This document shows, in pieces, positions 2,937 to 64,000 of a stretch of DNA of 64,000 nt; position 1 is the stretch's first letter; each line of letters opens with the position of its first letter. The stretch is from Escherichia phage KBNP1711, in the sequence record NC_023593.1; one strand, given 5' to 3'. A model generated the notes under the pieces. It was not told the origin of the DNA. It saw only the letters and a program-made list of their open reading frames with translations, and ran no database searches. The translations under genes and the position numbers were made by a program.

Positions 2937-3155
2937 ATGAAAATGATGAAACAAATCAGTTATGGGTTAGCTTGTGTTGCTACCGGTTTTGCTGTGTCAG
3001 TGGCTGTTCCTGTTAACGCTGTGCATCCTCTGGTAACACAACCTGCACCTGTTGAGAAATTGAGTGCATCATGCAAGCAGCGTACAATTCAAAATAATCT
3101 TGTGGTTATTTGTCCGGACTCTGATTCTAGTGCTCTGAGAAATATGCTTCAGTAA
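2937..3155 (+). CDS. small exported protein (signal peptide, two Cys)
   Basis: MKMMKQISYGLACVATGFAVSVAVPVNA signal-like N-terminus; TAGGAGA 9 nt upstream of ATG 2937. Confidence 0.4.
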   Translation: MKMMKQISYGLACVATGFAVSVAVPVNAVHPLVTQPAPVEKLSASCKQRTIQNNLVVICPDSDSSALRNMLQ

Positions 3156-23553: not shown

Positions 23554-23778
23554 ATTTTAATTTCCTTATTTAATTTAAGATTGTTGCTCACTTTGAGCGG
23601 TTATGTATAGTATACATTACACCTATACCGATAAGAGTGCTATGTAGTATAAGCATCAGTGGTAGTAGATATTGACTACTAGTAATGTATATATTGTATA
23701 GATGATAATTCTATTGCAGGCTTGTATATTGGGCAATTCTCAGAATCCCTTGCAAGTACCGAAGGGCAGGAGACACCT

Positions 23779-23843
23779 GCGAGATAAAAATAGAGAATTA
23801 AGGAATCCTTGATTTAGGTTGTGGGGACTCCTAGGGACTTTGA
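23779..23843. repeat. perfect 11-bp inverted repeat AAATAGAGAAT / ATTCTCTATTT around a 43-bp core
   Basis: Read directly in the 414-bp ORF-free region upstream of the SSB gene. Confidence 0.5.
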
Positions 23844-23967
23844 TTCTCTATTTAAAAGATTAATAATTACTTACTACCTAAATAGTTAACTAACTTACTT
23901 AAACCAAATTCAATAATAATAGATAAAAAGATTATTCCTAAGAAAGCTAAGATGTAAAGAACATAAG

Positions 23968-31288: not shown

Positions 31289-32029
31289 TTAATTACCACC
31301 CTTTTCCATAGCTTTAACGATTGCTTTACAGAAACCAGAACGAACAATATCATCTGAGTCGCCATCAACAATATCAGCGAACTCGTACAGGTCGTGATCG
31401 TCAATGAACTCAGTAGCCCAAGTAAGACCGCTCTCTCGGCCTTTCATATCGTGCTGGTTAGTGTCACCCATGCAGAACAGCTGGGATGTTTCACCCAAGC
31501 GAGTCATAATAGAGAATGCTTCATCTTTGGTTGTATTCTGGAACTCATCCACAATAACAATGGCATCATTGAAAGAGCGACCACGGAGATATTCCAGAGG
31601 CACAAACTCAATGTTCCCATTACCAAGCTGACATTCATAGAAACCTTTACCATACCGCTGAGTGATTACATCAACAATAGGCATCAGGTATGGTTCGAAC
31701 TTATCACGAAGCCCACCCGGAAGTAATCCAAGAGAGTTACCCATGCCAACAGAGGGTCGGCTAATGATAATCTTTTGAATCTTACCACTCTTCAGTGCAT
31801 CAATGACAGTAGAGGTGATGACGAACGTCTTACCACAGCCCGCAGGAGCGTCTGTGAACACCACTTGTTTAGTCTTGATAGCATTGAGTAGCTCAGATTG
31901 AAACTGATTCTGAGGGACCACTGGCTTCGCTAAAACAACCTCTTCATACTCACGCTTACCTTTCTTAGTGACTAAGGCTTCACGACGTAAATCTTTACGA
32001 GATTCTCTACGGGACTGTCTACGGCTCAT
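31289..32029 (-). CDS. phoH: PhoH-like ATPase
   Basis: Walker A FTDAPAGCGKTF and overall PhoH-like length and order. Confidence 0.8.
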   Translation of the reverse strand: MSRRQSRRESRKDLRREALVTKKGKREYEEVVLAKPVVPQNQFQSELLNAIKTKQVVFTDAPAGCGKTFVITSTVIDALKSGKIQKIIISRPSVGMGNSLGLLPGGLRDKFEPYLMPIVDVITQRYGKGFYECQLGNGNIEFVPLEYLRGRSFNDAIVIVDEFQNTTKDEAFSIMTRLGETSQLFCMGDTNQHDMKGRESGLTWATEFIDDHDLYEFADIVDGDSDDIVRSGFCKAIVKAMEKGGN

Positions 32030-32211
32030 TTTCGCTCTCCTAGCTCTTCGTAATTAAATACAGAGGTTCGACAATCTTTACATGTTGTTGTATAGACCCG
32101 AACATTAATGAACTTCTTGTTCTTCCCTTTGGTGGGTGAGCCTTTAGCAAGCTCGCTGATAACTTTAGAACTTAAGTTTAGGTTTGTTCCTTCACATTTA
32201 GAACACTTCAC
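32026..32211 (-). CDS. small zinc-ribbon protein
   Basis: CSKCEG...CKDC Cys pairs. Confidence 0.4.
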   Translation of the reverse strand: MKCSKCEGTNLNLSSKVISELAKGSPTKGKNKKFINVRVYTTTCKDCRTSVFNYEELGERK

Positions 32212-43292: not shown

Positions 43293-45311
43293 TTAATTAT
43301 GACCTTTACAGTGCACTGAATCGCACACCACTTGATTGGTATTGTTTAGTGTGCAGAGTTCTGCATCACGCCACGGAATCTTTTTAAAACAGACTGCACA
43401 AAACCCCAAAGTAGACCAGAGGGCTTTTGTGAAGGTTGCTGAACGGTTTCCATCGGAAGAGGCAACTGTTCTGGTAATTGAGACTTTTGACTCACGAAAG
43501 GTTTCCGCTACTGGAGCGGATTCCTCCTTTGGGGTAGTCACTGCAATAGCATAAATACCACCCCAACGCTTCTCAATGTAAGCACCGAATACATCTTCCA
43601 GAGTGATTTCACTCTTACGCTTGGTTGAGGATTCCATGACAACCATGTTGTCCAGAATCTTTTGATCGACACGAAGAGCTACTTCAGGACGTCGAGCACT
43701 TGTTGTATCAACACACTTAGTCCAAACATAACCCTCTTTCAGGGTGACTTGAGTTGCTTGCTTCTTTGCTTTATTAGCACAGATTTTACAAACATCGTCA
43801 CCACGAAGTTTACTGAACTCTTCATCAAATTCAAAGTCAGACTTCACTTCACCGCACACCGAACAAACACCGATAGGAATCTCATCCTCTTCAACGTCTT
43901 CTACTTGCTTCTGGATAGAATCAAAACAAGCTTTATGCCAATATGCTTGGTATGCGAAGATTGCACTTGGGGCTTCTTTCCAGTCGATGTGCTTATCACA
44001 GCCACCACAATCACCATGGGAATGGGCTTCCCAGAACTTACGAGTGATAGTCACCCCATTCTTGCTGACAAAACTATCCTCTGCATCAAAAGGGATATCA
44101 TCATCGAAATCAGCTGTAGTGCTTTCCGGCTCCTTTTTCGACAAGTCAAAGAAGTGACCAGAGATCAACACCAAACGAATCATGCTATTAACTTCAGAAA
44201 TACAGCCAACCGTACCACGGTAAACCATATGCTTATTCTTAAGAGCAGCTTCGTAATCAGTTTGCAGGATGTTATGAACATCACCCTCAATATACTCTTG
44301 AGCTTTGTCATCATAAATATAACCAACCATCTTACCGCGATCGGTATCTTTATAACAAACAAACTCGTGAGGAATAATATCAACCTGCATATCACGACGG
44401 ATATCAACACCTTTGTCAGATGCGATCTTGTTTTGTTTCAAGATTGCTTCACGACGACGTACATCACCTGCGGTTACGCCGGGCTTTCTTTGCTCGTCGC
44501 TGTTCCCGTTTACGTAACTTTTTATCCCGCTTGAGTGATTGTTGCTGTAGCTGTTCGAGTAATAACTTCCCCAACGCGTTGCTACCGTAAAAACCGGGAG
44601 TTCATGTACGACCTCCTCTACCAAAGTCATCTTGTTGTCAGAAACATCAAAGATGTACTCTGTACCGACTTTACACTCAAAGTGCTCATCGATTCGATTC
44701 TTGTGGCTCTTAGAACGCTGAAGAATCCACATCAACATAGCTTCTTCTGAAGCACCAAACCATGAAGTTCCCAGACGGGCCAGATGGAATGGACGCTCAT
44801 CGTTGCGAATGATGTGAAGACGGTTATCACTTGCATCATGCCAGATCAGAGTGAATGCACCATCCAACTTCTGAATAGTCTCTGCTGCACCAATCTTGTT
44901 AATAGAGTGGCAGATGTTCTCACTATCAACCTCAAAAACCTTACTGTCAGGCAGAAGGTCTTGATCAACTAAGGTTCCGTTATGAACCAGAGTGATGTTT
45001 CCGTGAGAGAATGGGTGAGCGTTACGTGAGTTAATAGCACCTTTCGTAGCATGTCGGCTATGACCAACAATCCATGAAGGAGGCACTGTGTAATTAGTAA
45101 GGCCAGTTGTCAGCTCGGTGTACTCTTTCTGTAACATGAAAGCATAGGAAGGTAGTGCTTCTTTGTAAGAGAACACAGATCTTTCGCTTTTACGCTGACC
45201 GAAAATACCAGTTGAGTGTTGACCACGAAATACACCAGCATAAAGAAGCTGGTTGTAAACATCTAAGTCATAACTTGAGAGGCTTCCACCTGCTAATACG
45301 ATACCACAAAT
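43293..45311 (-). CDS. class-II (Ntn) glutamine amidotransferase domain protein with long Cys-rich C-terminal extension
   Basis: Hand translation upstream of track start gives (ATT)-CGIVLAGG...VFRGQHSTGI...HNGTL; SD AGGTGG 8 nt before ATT 45311; track ORF begins at GTG 45176. Confidence 0.6.
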   Translation of the reverse strand: MCGIVLAGGSLSSYDLDVYNQLLYAGVFRGQHSTGIFGQRKSERSVFSYKEALPSYAFMLQKEYTELTTGLTNYTVPPSWIVGHSRHATKGAINSRNAHPFSHGNITLVHNGTLVDQDLLPDSKVFEVDSENICHSINKIGAAETIQKLDGAFTLIWHDASDNRLHIIRNDERPFHLARLGTSWFGASEEAMLMWILQRSKSHKNRIDEHFECKVGTEYIFDVSDNKMTLVEEVVHELPVFTVATRWGSYYSNSYSNNHSSGIKSYVNGNSDEQRKPGVTAGDVRRREAILKQNKIASDKGVDIRRDMQVDIIPHEFVCYKDTDRGKMVGYIYDDKAQEYIEGDVHNILQTDYEAALKNKHMVYRGTVGCISEVNSMIRLVLISGHFFDLSKKEPESTTADFDDDIPFDAEDSFVSKNGVTITRKFWEAHSHGDCGGCDKHIDWKEAPSAIFAYQAYWHKACFDSIQKQVEDVEEDEIPIGVCSVCGEVKSDFEFDEEFSKLRGDDVCKICANKAKKQATQVTLKEGYVWTKCVDTTSARRPEVALRVDQKILDNMVVMESSTKRKSEITLEDVFGAYIEKRWGGIYAIAVTTPKEESAPVAETFRESKVSITRTVASSDGNRSATFTKALWSTLGFCAVCFKKIPWRDAELCTLNNTNQVVCDSVHCKGHN

Positions 45312-47913: not shown

Positions 47914-48835
47914 TATAGTATTCCACCAATTCTTTAAAGAGGGATATGATTGTTTCTTTGTTGCTCTCCATATTAGAGCCGCAACGACTTTCAATACGTT
48001 CTAAGAAACCATTTACATTGATGTTAGAAATCTTTTCATCAAGAGATGAACGTTTCCAACCAGTGCTCATAGACCAAACTCTCAAAAAGGTACTCATTGA
48101 AGAGTACATCTCTGCGTTTTGGTTTCGACGACGAGCAATACGACGAAGAGCTGCACGGTCATGGTTTCGGATATACCCTGATGTGTTATCACCTTCTCCG
48201 ACTTTGTTTTGCAACCAAACGTCGGTTGAAAACTCACCTGTATTGCAAATAATCGGAAGAAATGCAAATGCTGGTAAATCATGCGGTAAATAGATAGATG
48301 TTGATTCGTCAGTGGAGTCATTAACTCTATCAAAGTTAAGCTCCCCAAAGAAGTCCTTACTTACCCCAGCAAGAGCTAGAGCTAATCCAACACGACGACG
48401 GAATAGCCATTCTTCTCTATCATCAACTCCCTCTGAAAGAAAATCCATAGATTCATACTCGCAATCGAGATAGCTACGGAAAGTCATTAGTCCTGTAAAA
48501 ACTTTATCTGCTGCGTGTTCACGAAGATCAACCTCTACACTATTAGCAGAAGTTATTGTGAACATATCTTTGTACATAGAACAGGAGTTCAGTACATCAG
48601 CAGTATCCACCAAATGAGACTCAGTCTCATCCATGTTGCAGTGGGGCCAGTAGTTAATCTTACCCATGTGCGCTGTGAAGTTATCCAAGCTGGTTCGAGT
48701 ACTCAGGCCGTTAATGTCACGAGTGCTAAAGTTGTGCATAGAGTTGTGGATACCGAAACAAACTCGGCTCGCAAAACTCTGCTCACCCAACATATCACTA
48801 ACTTCTACAGGAGCTAATGTTGTGGAAATTGCCAT
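47906..48835 (-). CDS. hypothetical protein
   Basis: 309-aa ORF. Confidence 0.4.
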   Translation of the reverse strand: MAISTTLAPVEVSDMLGEQSFASRVCFGIHNSMHNFSTRDINGLSTRTSLDNFTAHMGKINYWPHCNMDETESHLVDTADVLNSCSMYKDMFTITSANSVEVDLREHAADKVFTGLMTFRSYLDCEYESMDFLSEGVDDREEWLFRRRVGLALALAGVSKDFFGELNFDRVNDSTDESTSIYLPHDLPAFAFLPIICNTGEFSTDVWLQNKVGEGDNTSGYIRNHDRAALRRIARRRNQNAEMYSSMSTFLRVWSMSTGWKRSSLDEKISNINVNGFLERIESRCGSNMESNKETIISLFKELVEYYND

Positions 48836-52551: not shown

Positions 52552-52982
52552 ACATCCTCCAATTAAACATTTATATAAGACTTGCTTAGATAAAGATTCA
52601 ATAAAATAGGGGGAGGGGACGAATCCTCCCTTATCCTATTAATTAATGTTGCATGTAAGATCTAACAATCGGTTGCCTTTGTAGGAATAAGCATTATGCT
52701 AATCCAGCACTAAACTCCCGCCCCCTTAGTGGGCTGGGTTATTAAAGGGTAACGCCCTTATGGGCTAGTTACGTGAATGTTAGTTTGATAGGAGATCTGA
52801 AGTCCTATCTCAAAGGACTCTCGTAAGAATCCTTCACGATATTACTTATTCATTTCTCGTCGGCTATCTCTCCAAGCCAACCAAGTGTAGGTTTTCAGCT
52901 CTTCAAAGTCTTCTGGAGAGAATAGATATTCTTTGAAGGTGTCACTAAACCACTCTAAAAATTCTTCAGTCATAATAACCTC

Positions 52983-53156
52983 TTAACAATACTGATCACA
53001 TGGCTGATCACCACATGTCTTACAGATCACTGGAGAGTAACTACAGGCAGGATATACTGACACACCATCAAACGTTTCACACCCACAATCAGGGCATGTA
53101 CCATTGGATTCCATGTCATCGTCATCATACACTTCTCCGCCACCATAACAGCTCAT
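52983..53156 (-). CDS. small Cys-rich zinc-binding-type protein (57 aa)
   Basis: AAGGAG RBS 5 nt before ATG; CPDCGC...CKTCGDQPC; + strand ORF 53000..53185 is judged its shadow. Confidence 0.4.
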   Translation of the reverse strand: MSCYGGGEVYDDDDMESNGTCPDCGCETFDGVSVYPACSYSPVICKTCGDQPCDQYC

Positions 53157-54196: not shown

Positions 54197-54271
54197 TGGC
54201 GTCCCCACTAGGACTCGAACCTAGAATGGATTTTTAGAAGAAATCTGTTATATCCTTTTAACTATAGGGAC
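54197..54271 (-). tRNA. tRNA-Arg (anticodon UCU)
   Basis: Hand-folded cloverleaf: 7-bp acceptor stem, D stem GTTA/TAAC, anticodon stem GATTT/AAATC with loop CTTCTAA, T arm CTAGG-TTCGAGT-CCTAG, encoded CCA. Confidence 0.8.
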
Positions 54272-55447: not shown

Positions 55448-55531
55448 ATAAGCACCTCTTGTTAGTTTAAGTAAGAGTTGTCCCTTAATTAAAACAACAA
55501 AGGCCACCCGATTGGGCAGCCTTTTTACTTA

Positions 55532-55672
55532 TTAACTGTTATATGTCCAATTACCTTGCTTGTTACGAATAGCCGACATAGCATGAAGCCAGAAGCCTTC
55601 CAGTTTCAGAGCACCGTTAGCTACTACATCCATACGTTCAGGGCGGTTCATACGTTTGGTTGATACTTTCAT
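55532..55672 (-). CDS. small basic protein (46 aa)
   Basis: Hand-translated ORF in a region with no track ORF; weak SD. Confidence 0.25.
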   Translation of the reverse strand: MKVSTKRMNRPERMDVVANGALKLEGFWLHAMSAIRNKQGNWTYNS

Positions 55673-55919
55673 ACCTATCTCTCTTTGTTAGTGGAGGCAT
55701 TATTGCCAGTTGATATAAGGGATAGCCCTAGTCAGTAGACTAATCCTGACCGCGTACTCATTGCCGACCTTCTCTGCCTAAGAGTTCAGGTTCTAGAGCT
55801 ATCTCTTATTCCAACTGGTGAAGACTCCCTACCCCTAGGAAGTCTCCTGAATCCCAAACCAATATGTACCCCTACATATTAGAAAGTCTTTCGAAAATTA
55901 ACAGGTTTTAGTCTAACAC

Positions 55920-56028
55920 CGGATGTTCGAGCAAGCTCTCCCTAGCGGTGTGGCATATGCCTGAGTTAATAATTTAATGAGGAACACCCTCACATAGCCC
56001 TCTGATGGATACAAGGGCTATAAGTCGG
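55920..56028. repeat. intergenic element copy 2 (CGGATGTTCGAG ... CTCTCCCTAGC ... hairpin CACATAGCCC...GGGCTATAAG)
   Basis: Matches copy at 50686-50802. Confidence 0.5.
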
Positions 56029-56030
56029 TG

Positions 56031-59097: not shown

Positions 59098-59150
59098 CTT
59101 TGATTAAATTCTTTGATTAATGCACTGAATCAATGCACTGATAAAAGAAA

Positions 59151-59176
59151 AGGCGCTACCCGTTAAGATAGCGCCT
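59151..59176. terminator. hairpin with perfect 8-bp stem AGGCGCTA/TAGCGCCT, A-run upstream and T-rich downstream
   Basis: Read directly; lies between two - strand genes. Confidence 0.45.
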
Positions 59177-59199
59177 TATGTTTATTTAGATTGTCTTAC

Positions 59200-60099
59200 T
59201 TATGCTGCGTTACGTGCTGCCATGATCTCAGCTGCCTTGCGCAATACTTCTTCTTCCTCAGCTTTTGCAGCTTGTTCGGTACGGATTGCTACCGTTGAAG
59301 AGATACGACCGCGCAGGCTTTCTAACTTCTCCTGCATTTTGGCAATGGTGGATTCCATTTCATCGGCATACGAATCCAGTGATTCCAGTTCCTTGCTTGA
59401 TGCGTTCATCAGATAATCATCAGAGATCGCTACCGTTGAAGCCGTGACTTTCTTGATGAGTGAGTCAAAGGACTTCTTAACCTTGCCTACTTCTTCACTC
59501 AGGGCAATAGTATTATCACTGGTAGCGCCGTTACGCTCATCAGCCAACAATTTTGCTTCAATACGGATTGCATTTAAGCGTTCAACCAAAGCGTAAATAT
59601 CTTGGTTAAAATCTTCCTTGTTTTTCGCCGGGATTTGCAGGTGTGCCGCCACGTTGTCATTGCAACCCTTGTAAAAGTTAGGGTTATCTACTTCAATTTC
59701 ACGACCTAACGCAAAGTTTTCGAAAGCGTTCGACCAGCGAGCGCGATTCTGTTCCATTTTGGCCTTAATTTGCGCTTCTTTCGCATCTTCTTTCGCTTTC
59801 GCTTCACCTTCCAGATTAATCCACTTTTTACGACCGTTTGCCGCATCGGTGTTAAACTTGACAGGAGTCAGGAAAGTGATTGCAGTGGCGATCACATCCA
59901 TATCACGAAAACGCTCGGTTAACAGAAAATCGACCGCCGCCTGCAATACGTCTAACTTTTTACCGTTGCTGCGGAAGTGCTGCAAATGACCTAACAGAAA
60001 ATTAGAAACATCTTGCTTAATCGCCGCGTTATTGCTACGAATGTTGTTAGCCAGTGCGTTAAAACCAGACTCTTTTACCAGATTAAAAATTTTAGCCAT
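59200..60099 (-). CDS. hypothetical protein (300 aa, helical, Ala/Lys/Glu-rich)
   Basis: ATG 60099 with AAAGGTG upstream; track start 60108 is GTG; first gene downstream of the ORF-free region. Confidence 0.5.
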   Translation of the reverse strand: MAKIFNLVKESGFNALANNIRSNNAAIKQDVSNFLLGHLQHFRSNGKKLDVLQAAVDFLLTERFRDMDVIATAITFLTPVKFNTDAANGRKKWINLEGEAKAKEDAKEAQIKAKMEQNRARWSNAFENFALGREIEVDNPNFYKGCNDNVAAHLQIPAKNKEDFNQDIYALVERLNAIRIEAKLLADERNGATSDNTIALSEEVGKVKKSFDSLIKKVTASTVAISDDYLMNASSKELESLDSYADEMESTIAKMQEKLESLRGRISSTVAIRTEQAAKAEEEEVLRKAAEIMAARNAA

Positions 60100-60108
60100 G
60101 ATATTCAC

Positions 60109-62064
60109 CTTTCAATTGTAAGGGCACTATGCCCCGCTCTCTATGAGCTTTTTAAGTCGCCATTGACTTATCAATATCCACTCATTGTTAAGTAATTATT
60201 GATAAGTGGGGCGGTCTTATCAGAAGTTAACCTTGCCGCCCCTTTATCTGTGATGTTTCATCTGGTATCTTTAATTAGTCGCTATAAACGAAGCCGACCT
60301 GATAGCGATGATCAATCATCACAATAAGGCAGTGCGTCCGACTCTAATTAGTTACTTTATTGTAACCGTCGGCAATATCGTCTACTTTGCTTTCGCTCTC
60401 GCCTATCCTTTTATACTAACTCTCAATCGCTAACCATCGCCCACTACGGGAGGTTATTGCGAAAGAGTCATTAGCCGTCTAATATTCCGACGTTTTATAT
60501 CTTTCGGCAAGTTTACTACATAACCCGACTATGTACTTTCATCTTGTGATGAATCTCAAGCCGTTCGCATCGTAAACGTTCACACTAAACCTTATTGTTA
60601 AATAGCAATTTGCCACTTTTTAACCACTCCCCGCCGCTCTCAATTGAGCGTTAATTAGTCGGGCTTGCCTACCCTGATTAACTTCTTTCACTGTAGCACC
60701 ATGTTAGCGATGGCCGCCGCTACCCTTAACCGTGGGCGATTAGTTTAAGCCTTTGCGTGTACTCAATGAATCCGCTTATCAGTGGTGACGTTTCCAGTTA
60801 AGGGATTGTGAGATTGTTTTCTCTGATAGTCTAGAGAATCTCACACCGTTTTATCTGGTATGCTGTCCGATGGTTATTATCTTCCAGCATATTTAACCGA
60901 TATAGGAGAATGTTTAAATTGTTAAAGAGCGGTAAATCTATCAACGTGCTTTCTCACGTTATGCAACTGTTAGCCGTTGTTACGCTTTTCACTGAAGCGG
61001 TGATTTGCTTAAGTGGTGCTCATTATGGACCATGTTGTTTTTGCCGTCAATCACTTTTTTAATCTTTTTCGTCGTTCCCGCTATTGGGAGGATATATCAA
61101 CCCGCTTTATTGGGTTGAAGATTAAGCGATGAGGCTTAACCCATGATTCATACTGTTAAAGAGCGTTTAGCCTTTTATAGTGTCTGCTAATCACTGCATC
61201 ATTAAAGGCTTACTTATTCATTAACGGGGCGCCTAAGCCCGAACTACCCGCTGCACTATGTGCCACCTTTCCCGCGATACGTTGATTTGGGAACTAGTTA
61301 ACGTTGTTTTGTTAACTTGTGGTTAGTATGGACTACCTTAACCACGTTTGCAACCTCTTTTTTATCATCTTCTTTTATTCTTTTCCCTTATCTCGCGTGA
61401 ATCTATGCGAAAGGGCAAGATGATAAGTCTGATTTGTCTTTTAGGAATCTAGTGCGCTTTCAAGCATTGACCATTTGAAAGTATCGAACAAATGAGGCTT
61501 ATTTTGTTGCTCATCGTCCGCCTGTTCACGTATGAATCAGGAATCAATTCTAGTGGTCAACTAAGCGCCTTATAGTAATGACGTTCCCGCCACCTGTAAG
61601 ACAAATCATATTTTTAAAGAGCGGGATTTTTCAAGTCATCGCTGACTATGCTCACTATATATCAGGCTTTTTCCGGTGTCAATACTCTTTTTCAAGTATT
61701 TTCACTTTCTAGCCTGATTTTTAAAGAGCGGGGCAATTTCTTGCCTTGTATGTTTTACATCGTACCCGATGAAATGAAGTATACATTAATCAGATGAGGT
61801 TGCAATAGGGTAAAGCAAATTATTTTAAACTTTTTGAAAGGTGGGAAGTATAAGAGAATGCGCGCGGGATAACATACCCAAAACAGGCTGTAAATCACTT
61901 TCTAACGTCCTGTAAGCCATTCTAATGAGCTAAAAGGAGGCAAGGTATACAATCACCTTAGAAAAGAAAAAAGCCTCATAGCGAGGCTTACAGGAAGGAT
62001 TAGAGAATCAGATAGATTATGACCATAGGCATGACCACGGCACAATATAAGAGAAAGATTAAGC
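60109..62064. other. 1.9-kb ORF-free region with dispersed short repeats; candidate origin, terminal or regulatory region
   Basis: No ORF of 60 aa or more in any frame; four TTAAAGAGCG copies (60931, 61165, 61614, 61731); inverted repeat CTTATCAATA/TATTGATAAG at 60176-60214. Confidence 0.5.
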
Positions 62065-63973: not shown

Positions 63974-64000
63974 TCAAATAATTAACCCATCAAAATATCA

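Follow-up and report, generated by a model that had tools for sequence, protein, structure and literature searches.

The leader of an Escherichia coli ribosomal RNA (rRNA) operon combines tandem P1 and P2 promoters, a boxB-boxA-boxC series, the rrn antitermination complex and a leader-trailer helix. The boxA consensus of gamma-proteobacteria is GYTCTTTAANA (PMC5725501); boxA reads UGCUCUUUA in rrn and CGCUCUUA in phage lambda, with CACugcucuuuaacaauuua as the rrn boxA-spacer oligonucleotide (PMC2724277), and the rrn-type boxA sequence is UGCUCUUUAACAA. Rho rapidly terminates untranslated RNA, and Nus factors recruited by boxA prevent termination on clustered regularly interspaced short palindromic repeat (CRISPR) arrays (PMC7665894). 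The Nus complex also assists rRNA folding, and boxA mutations lower the yield of active 30S subunits (PMC5725501, PMC10250234). In this study we examined a non-coding gap of almost 2 kb in Escherichia phage KBNP1711 (record NC_023593.1), located in a stretch of 64,000 nucleotides (nt), hereafter the window, in which an initial annotation had noticed a region free of open reading frames (ORFs) with iteron-like repeats. Our analyses make it probable that this gap holds a tandem promoter-boxA antitermination module, which feeds a long, untranslated and structured RNA upstream of the first early gene.

This reading builds on the boxA matches, their strand and position, the conservation of the promoters, the lack of a coding signal and an RNA fold with compensatory changes, all of them observed, from which we infer transcription of the region, Nus-factor binding, the threat posed by Rho and the role of the folded RNA. 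With ATG, GTG and TTG accepted as starts and a minimum of 60 amino acids, no frame holds an ORF between 60196 and 62064 (1869 nt), as initially described, and the longest ORF within these limits has 50 amino acids. It is the largest ORF-free gap of the window (the runners-up measure 523, 448 and 357 nt), which is indeed gene-dense, with ORFs covering 90.7% of it. The variable sites of the gap display no 3-base periodicity (p=0.74-0.78), whereas those of the flanking coding sequences do (p=3e-40 for the homologue of gp124, p=7e-15 for the other flank).

A megablast search with positions 60109-62064 retrieved 96 phage records, all of them from phiEco32-like podophages (Gordonclarkvirinae) that infect E. 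coli or Shigella; ECBP2 matches the gap best (96% identity), and most others range from 80 to 95%. The matched stretch is unannotated in nearly all these records, the counterpart in phiEco32 being an unannotated 1.94 kb between phi32_124 and phi32_125. The boxA, promoter and fold comparisons reported here were made on 27 distinct genomes, the identity profile on the window and 12 relatives, and the search for invariant runs on 13 genomes. In the profile, identity per 100 nt is 0.84-0.92 over 60109-61000 and 0.66-0.91 in the flanking genes, and falls to 0.3-0.75 in the indel-rich right half (61100-62064). The poor conservation that the initial annotation had named as a counter-indication was therefore not found, the left 1 kb being at least as conserved as the flanking genes.

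The repeats noticed initially, four exact copies of TTAAAGAGCG at 60922, 61156, 61614 and 61721, were recovered in a single orientation and nowhere else in the window, where 13 matches occur against 3.9 expected if one mismatch is allowed; the 16-nt extension ATTTTTAAAGAGCGGG is likewise identical at 61610-61625 and 61717-61732. Judged by its sequence, TTAAAGAGCG is the reverse complement of boxA, the NusB/NusE site, and it reads CGCUCUUUAA on the minus strand, the direction in which the flanking early genes lie. The consensus GYTCTTTAANA has four perfect matches, all on the minus strand and within 811 nt, against 0.57 expected in the whole window, and no further match on either strand of the 64 kb. 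The next ORF-free gaps (55508-56030, 52552-52999 and 23611-23967) hold none either.

All four copies agree with the rrn-type boxA in sequence. Copy A with its spacer (CGCUCUUUAACAAUUUA, 60915-60931, minus strand) reads CCGCUCUUUAACAAUUUAAACA, of which GCUCUUUAACAAUUUA matches the rrn boxA-spacer of E. coli without a difference over 16 nt (PMC2724277, Table 1), and the longest invariant run of the entire gap, TTAAAGAGCGGTAAATCT, corresponds to this first repeat copy. An rrn leader 30-mer was checked and matched at 100% beside 16S genes in bacterial contigs within the phage collection. Copy B (CGCUCUUUAACAG, 61153-61165) has an invariant core at a fixed position in 27/27 relatives. Copies C (61610-61623) and D (61717-61730), also on the minus strand, share the sequence CGCUCUUUAAAAAU and both match the consensus perfectly; copy C resembles the lambda nutL boxA-spacer cgcucuuaaaaauuaa (PMC2724277). 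Each relative carries three to five boxA copies in uniform orientation, even in the indel-rich right half (27/27). Copies A and B occupy fixed positions, and one to three more are found in the variable half of each genome.

The copies are predicted to be promoter-proximal in an untranslated RNA, with conserved sigma-70 promoters 20-95 nt upstream and no coding signal. Promoter P_A (61022-61075, minus strand) comprises an A-rich tract, GAAAAAGAUUAAAAAAG, a -35 element TTGACG (61050-61045), a 17-nt spacer and a -10 element CATAAT (61027-61022), which would place the start of transcription near 61015; TTGAC and CATAAT are invariant in 27/27 relatives and the spacer varies. Before copy C lies the near-consensus P_C (TTGACA-17-TATAGT, 61654-61682, minus strand, score 11/12), preceded by A-rich sequence, and most relatives have TTGACA-16/17-(T/C)ATA(A/G)T 31-36 nt upstream of a C-type boxA. 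The A/T-rich tracts initially pointed out at 61660-61730 are present and coincide with this sigma-70 promoter and the A-rich sequence upstream of it. P_D, in front of copy D, is a weaker sigma-70-like candidate (TTGCAA-16-TATACT, 61778-61805, minus strand, 9/12), and many relatives have an ATTGCA/TTGCAA...TATACT-like site about 48-50 nt upstream of the D-type boxA. In most relatives TTGACA-16-TAAGCT/TAGAAT also stands 14-24 nt upstream of boxA B, a promoter that an insertion has replaced in the lineage of the window. Across genomes, the best promoter scores at least 10/12 in 45% of the 150-nt stretches upstream of boxA, against 0% of coding controls.

The insertion that displaces the boxA B promoter measures about 140 nt and sits at 61180-61320, between boxA B and boxA C. 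ECBP2, 4E8, TH34, MN05 and Bas90 also have it; phiEco32, SU10 and others do not. Taken as a whole, the right half has the look of a set of promoter-hairpin-boxA cassettes that are being shuffled.

The boxA copies are accompanied by minus-strand hairpins, located where rrn leaders have boxB. A predicted GGCAA-GAAA-UUGCC hairpin with a GNRA loop (61732-61745) abuts boxA D, and its position is kept in relatives, in some with another sequence (GGCACUUAGUGCC, AGGCUAGAUGUUUAGCCU). Between P_C and boxA C a GUCA-GCGA-UGAC hairpin, again with a GNRA loop, is predicted at 61635-61646, where relatives vary the stem (UUCA/UGAA, GGUCA/UGACC) and keep the GCGA loop. Upstream of boxA A stands GUG-AGAAAG-CAC (60943-60960), whose purine-rich loop is conserved and whose outer stem covaries; in this helix 7, 3/6 pairs are compensated, one of them occurring as UA in 14 genomes, CG in 10, AU in 2 and GC in 1. 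GNRA-type loops are found in three of the four boxA-upstream hairpins of the window, and a fold of -4 kcal/mol or better is predicted for 88% of the 40-nt stretches that precede a boxA, against 56% of controls.

Such conserved GNRA-type loops and covarying stems beside boxA also recall lambda-like nut sites, at which a phage N-like protein would bind the hairpins and allow polymerase to read through terminators across the early and middle genes. In relatives, annotation places many intrinsic terminators between early genes, and the antitermination strategy of the related phage 7-11 remains to be defined (PMC8948821), both of which count in favour of this scenario. We nevertheless regard it as improbable. 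The hairpins stand 5' of boxA, in the rrn order, and not 3' as in lambda nut; within about 20 nt 3' of copy A no hairpin is predicted. Moreover, the copies have the full boxA consensus, the type that works without N in rrn (PMC2724277), and a crude scan for arginine-rich stretches, the sole search made for an N homologue, led to none being recognised. That scan listed minus-strand 20-amino-acid stretches at 31994-32053, 44488-44547 and 48125-48184 (e.g. LRRARRAKMSRRQSRRESRK) as candidates.

Downstream of P_A, a structured RNA of about 0.9 kb extends on the minus strand from about 61015 to 60100. RNAalifold, run on a sequence-only MAFFT alignment of the 27 genomes, gave -255 kcal/mol for the minus strand and -175 kcal/mol for the plus strand, and predicted 257 pairs, in which 98.9% of 6938 cells are standard pairs. 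Compensatory double changes occur in 82 of the 257 pairs, against 38.1 +/- 3.0 in column shuffles (0/500 reach 82) and 10-16 in slid controls, in which the partners were moved by one to three columns. The covariation score is 0.229, compared with 0.129 in the shuffles and 0.03-0.06 in the slid controls, and G-U cells (707) far outnumber A-C cells (31). When the fold is mirrored onto the plus strand, pairing falls to 89%, a comparison that is partly circular because the structure was predicted on the minus strand. The single-sequence fold of the window's 906 nt pointed to the same strand (z=-9.1 minus, z=-4.6 plus). The region thus has compensated pairs above controls on one strand, the signature of a conserved structured RNA.

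Two multi-helix domains and a series of hairpins make up the predicted fold. Domain 1 (about 300 nt, 60619-60918) is closed by a helix pairing 60918-60906 with 60631-60619, which begins directly after the boxA spacer, and holds helices 10-22, including a long hairpin (60844-60808) and a composite 26-pair stem (60789-60667). Domain 2 (about 280 nt, 60321-60598), delimited by a nearly invariant 10-bp helix (60598-60589 with 60330-60321) together with helix 25, encloses helices 26-36, and 33 of the 43 pairs of helices 28-33 and 35 are compensated. The 3' hairpin series (60121-60320), up to the Shine-Dalgarno sequence, includes helices 39 and 41, which correspond to the two inverted repeats pointed out initially. 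Helix 39 (60242-60208, 5/7 pairs compensated) is the GGGGCGG/CCGCCCC stem, present at 60208-60214 and 60236-60242, about 8 nt away from where it had been placed. Helix 41 (60201-60172, 5/10 pairs compensated) is the inverted repeat, whose 11-nt perfect arms lie at 60166-60176 and 60197-60207, again about 10 nt from the position first given. An internal duplication relating the two domains was considered and rejected (nhmmer E above 0.4).

No Rfam family accounts for this RNA. The covariance-model scan proposed in the initial annotation was run, and at the gathering thresholds of Rfam 15 the sole hit in the window is a tRNA-Arg at 54200, outside the region, which is also the only tRNA or tmRNA detected in the window by a dedicated scan. 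With E values up to 10, the best hit in the region has E=1.8, all scores being far below gathering. A blastn comparison of the RNA with 5,426 complete E. coli genomes produced no hit, which means that it was not captured from the host.

Several motifs were noted within the RNA. G-rich motifs resembling an 'anti-boxA' are conserved at 60130-60143 and 60625-60644 (plus-strand positions; GAGAGCGGGGC and GAGAGCGGCGGGG in the minus-strand RNA). A pairing of the former with boxA D (61722-61735), 1.58 kb upstream and 93% complementary over 14 nt, would recall the rrn leader-trailer helix; it was rejected, as it shows no covariation and its G-run belongs to a covarying local helix, the local hairpins being better supported. 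A nearly invariant motif of 12-14 nt, ACCAGAU(G/A)AAAC, is found on the minus strand at 60848-60861 and 60255-60268 in the 27 genomes, one copy being predicted as single-stranded. Both copies are complementary to codons 6-10 of gp124 (60076-60090), a pairing likewise discarded for want of covariation.

The fold also bears on the interpretation of the region as a replication origin, either with DNA iterons and a DnaA box, or primed by transcription with an RNA pre-primer in the manner of ColE1 RNA II or T7 phi1.1A/B. The size, conservation and non-coding character of the region would suit an origin, as would its repeats, A/T-rich tracts and G-rich runs, and a Rho-protected transcript from strong promoters could prime replication. 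The chance that it is one appears slim to us. The repeats are strand-specific, lie downstream of promoters and are spaced irregularly (234, 458 and 107 nt, with other distances in relatives), so that we read them as boxA RNA signals and not as the iterons that had been suggested. The DnaA-box-like ATATCCACT exists (7/9 matches to the DnaA-box consensus), but relatives differ in it, and it belongs to helix 41, where it co-varies with its pairing partner. The asymmetry between G-U and A-C cells argues for a single folded strand rather than for duplex DNA sites. Cumulative GC skew, a check put forward initially, has no extremum in the region, and function searches on the flanking genes recognised no initiator gene next to the gap. 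In sum, an iteron origin would be expected to combine regularly spaced tandem direct repeats of 17-22 bp with an A/T-rich unwinding element, conserved DnaA boxes and an initiator gene, and neither the regular spacing nor conserved DnaA boxes nor a recognised initiator gene were found here.

The RNA leads into the gp124 homologue (phi32_124; 299 amino acids, minus strand, 59200-60110 together with its Shine-Dalgarno sequence AGGUGA at 60110-60105), the first early gene. The ORF finder had chosen GTG 60108 as its start; because AGGUGA is conserved and the annotations of relatives agree, we place the start at ATG 60099, and the non-coding region accordingly begins at 60100. The protein matches PHROG 13018, with no Pfam hit above threshold and no PDB relative. 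A scan detected no minus-strand terminator between the promoters and this gene. Past it, an intrinsic terminator (59150-59177, minus strand) consists of a 12-pair stem followed by TTCTTTT, and part of the stem is invariant in 13 genomes; it is likely the 3' end of the transcription unit.

Taken together, these elements suggest how the gap might work. It would constitute a control region for leftward (minus-strand) early transcription, arranged like the front of an E. coli rRNA operon: the tandem host sigma-70 promoters P_D, P_C and P_A, with a fourth before copy B in most relatives, would each be followed by a hairpin and a consensus boxA. In the nascent RNA, boxA would bind the host NusB-NusE(S10) pair, which with NusA, NusG and SuhB would turn RNA polymerase into a complex resistant to Rho and able to assist RNA folding. 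The modified polymerase could then complete a leader of about 0.9 kb (about 61015 to 60100) that Rho would otherwise cut short, given that an untranslated RNA of this length made by the host polymerase would need protection from Rho. The leader, with its two multi-helix domains of about 300 nt and its run of hairpins, would end at the gp124 ribosome-binding site, and the unit would close at the conserved intrinsic terminator. Since the boxA copies are of the full-consensus type, which is N-free in rrn, and a conserved terminator follows gp124, we think that the module is there for the gp124 transcription unit and not to carry polymerase through the early region as a whole.

Several points weigh against this proposal. 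As argued for rRNA (PMC5725501), a heavily structured RNA may be a poor substrate for Rho, in which case boxA may be there mainly for something other than protection from Rho, and the conserved terminator past gp124 argues against read-through of the whole early region. No rrn-type boxC was recognised in the gap, copy B lacks a convincing promoter of its own in this phage, P_D is weak (9/12), and promoter use throughout the gap is a prediction. The shuffle control of covariation ignores phylogeny, and phage mosaicism can lead to one compensated hairpin variant being counted in many genomes; on the strength of the slid controls, we argue that the covariation signal is real despite this caveat.

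Two kinds of role are conceivable for the folded RNA: that of a leader acting in cis on gp124, or an independent function, for instance as a scaffold, a decoy or a replication pre-primer. In the former case it might be no more than a 5' untranslated region (UTR) that governs the stability, RNase III/E processing or translation of the gp124 messenger, with boxA acting on translation as in suhB. The RNA continues free of terminators into the gp124 ribosome-binding site, the 97 phage records that carry it and the 96 that carry the gp124 homologue form practically one set, and the long near-perfect duplexes of the RNA are possible RNase III sites. Nevertheless, 900 nt and more than 40 helices go far beyond known bacterial UTR regulators, and helix 8, a predicted pairing between the flank of boxA A and the Shine-Dalgarno sequence, lacks covariation support. 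In addition, some 820 nt separate boxA A from the start codon; the suhB-type screen dealt with boxA sites no more than 50 nt away from one (PMC5725501). We view this purely cis-acting role as possible though rather unlikely, and it is compatible with the antitermination module proposed above.

Alternatively, the boxA copies and the large RNA could act as a decoy that soaks up NusB/E, SuhB, S4, RNases, Hfq or a defence protein, contributing to host takeover or anti-defence. The presence of several boxA copies behind strong promoters at the early end of the genome, and a fold conserved beyond the needs of a mere spacer, would fit such a role. Two observations make us doubt it strongly: no protein-binding RNA motif or Rfam family matched at E up to 10, and three to five copies are few relative to the boxA expected on the rRNA transcripts of the cell (an estimate, not a computed figure). 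Tentatively, and with somewhat less than even confidence, we further propose that the RNA of about 0.9 kb is no passive leader but the first of a class of large phage non-coding RNAs that have their own function, such as binding a host or phage machine, and for which the expression system of rRNA operons was copied so that the Nus complex shields and folds it.

To the right of the gap, an intrinsic terminator on the minus strand (61961-61989; stem AAGCCTCGCTATGAGGCTT, then TTTTCTTTTC) is conserved and annotated in SU10, SU7 and 4E8. It probably closes the right-end operon of four small minus-strand genes (62065 to about 63645) and would set the upstream limit of the element. Both flanks of the gap carry minus-strand genes, and the GC skew is compatible with leftward transcription between about position 19 kb and the end of the window. 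Two of the four right-end ORFs have hydrophobic N-termini resembling signal or membrane segments. PHROG labels two of the right-end genes 'terminase' (124 amino acids) and 'polymerase' (88 amino acids), labels that have passed into many GenBank annotations and are doubtful because the proteins are far too small and lack Pfam support; they look like propagated mis-annotations.

These four genes separate the gap from the terminal repeat, which contradicts the view that the gap is the genome terminus, a terminal-repeat junction of a circularly assembled genome or a packaging site. The region does lie near one end of the linear genome. The direct terminal repeats of 4E8 (75920-76125) and NC-B (76448-76641), however, are located some 2.1-2.5 kb further right, with genes between; alignment with 4E8 places the start of its annotated repeat about 217 bp beyond position 64000, past the end of the window and about 2.15 kb to the right of the region, and no terminal-repeat sequence occurs within the window. 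The chance of a terminus here is thus practically negligible, and of the four candidates offered initially (iteron origin, terminus or terminal repeat, packaging site, non-coding RNA genes) only the last has held up.

The element seems confined to close relatives. A scan of IMG/VR with the invariant 18-mer recovered four relatives plus chance matches in unrelated contigs, a gp124-based locus search returned the same four contigs, and a metagenome scan with a 25-mer yielded seven loci, each 87-95% identical over the conserved left 1 kb or so; no distant homologue emerged from any of these searches. At the right end of Salmonella phage 7-11 we found neither a boxA array nor the element. In the 68-kb LAMP/Bas92-94 group the whole non-coding region is kept and the four right-end genes are absent or replaced; the region adjoins the genome end in LAMP and plus-strand genes in Bas92.

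Matches similar to boxA were also noted in other phages. With the rrn-leader 30-mer, 703 phage records show a match of the boxA kind (Vibrio 302, Escherichia 132, Salmonella 78, Klebsiella 76, and others), many of which may be due to chance or contaminants. The T5-like Klebsiella phage IME260 has a 19-nt exact match to the rrn boxA leader at 3001-3019, in its pre-early terminal repeat and oriented as the A2 and A1 genes, and Acinetobacter phages have boxA-like matches inside long terminal repeats. Virulent phages may widely employ boxA at their early ends independently of N: with rrn-like boxA near the early ends of several virulent phage groups, hijacking of Nus factors without N is perhaps commoner than the lambda paradigm implies.

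The mechanism of boxA itself is well known; what is new, as far as we can tell, is that a virulent phage uses it in several copies and independently of N, and that a large RNA follows. We found no literature naming boxA together with phiEco32, a search whose scope left out the original phiEco32 papers, so that the early promoters may already be mapped; published accounts of the phages YF01, SU7, Privateer and 7-11 do not discuss the gap. The phiEco32-like phages serve as a model in the study of phage-encoded sigma factors and are widely isolated with a view to therapy, and this stretch of about 2 kb is blank in nearly all of their roughly 100 genomes. An rRNA-style promoter-boxA array offers a testable answer to how a virulent phage drives the host RNA polymerase through a long untranslated early RNA, and the analysis exposes a large, strongly covarying RNA that is in no RNA family database. 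A practical consequence is that genome annotations should include the element and that phage engineers should not use the region as a neutral insertion site.

Among described systems, the E. coli rrn leader is like the gap in its tandem strong sigma-70 promoters with A-rich upstream tracts, the order of hairpin and then boxA, the 16-nt boxA-spacer identity, the long untranslated structured RNA downstream and a long-range helix whose 5' strand comes right after boxA. It differs in that the phage-borne array has three to five boxA copies instead of one per leader and no recognised boxC, and in that its product, without similarity to rRNA or any E. coli sequence, ends in a protein-coding gene. 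With lambda nut the gap would share the use of host Nus factors through boxA early in infection, and it has GNRA-like hairpins beside boxA, copies C and D resembling the nutL boxA-spacer; unlike in lambda, the hairpin is 5' of boxA, the boxA has the full consensus with its extra U, no N homologue was found, and the phage is virulent with its own sigma factor. In CRISPR arrays and the suhB 5' UTR (PMC7665894, PMC5725501), boxA similarly opens an unusually long untranslated RNA and counters Rho there, but as single chromosomal copies, whereas here a multi-copy phage array stands ahead of a structured RNA. A cluster of strong host promoters near the early-transcribed end of the genome, presumed to enter first, is also found in T7, with its A1-A3 promoters and RNase III-processed leader, and in the T5 pre-early region, although in the present genome the promoters are set back from the terminus by four small genes and a terminator. 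We know of no conserved structured RNA of about 0.9 kb in either the T7 early or the T5 pre-early region. Finally, the RNA resembles OLE, GOLLD, ROOL and raiA in its length of hundreds of nt, its multi-domain architecture and its strong covariation, and departs from them in having no Rfam match, in being known only from phiEco32-like phages of E. coli and Shigella, and in being fused to a promoter-boxA array and an ORF.

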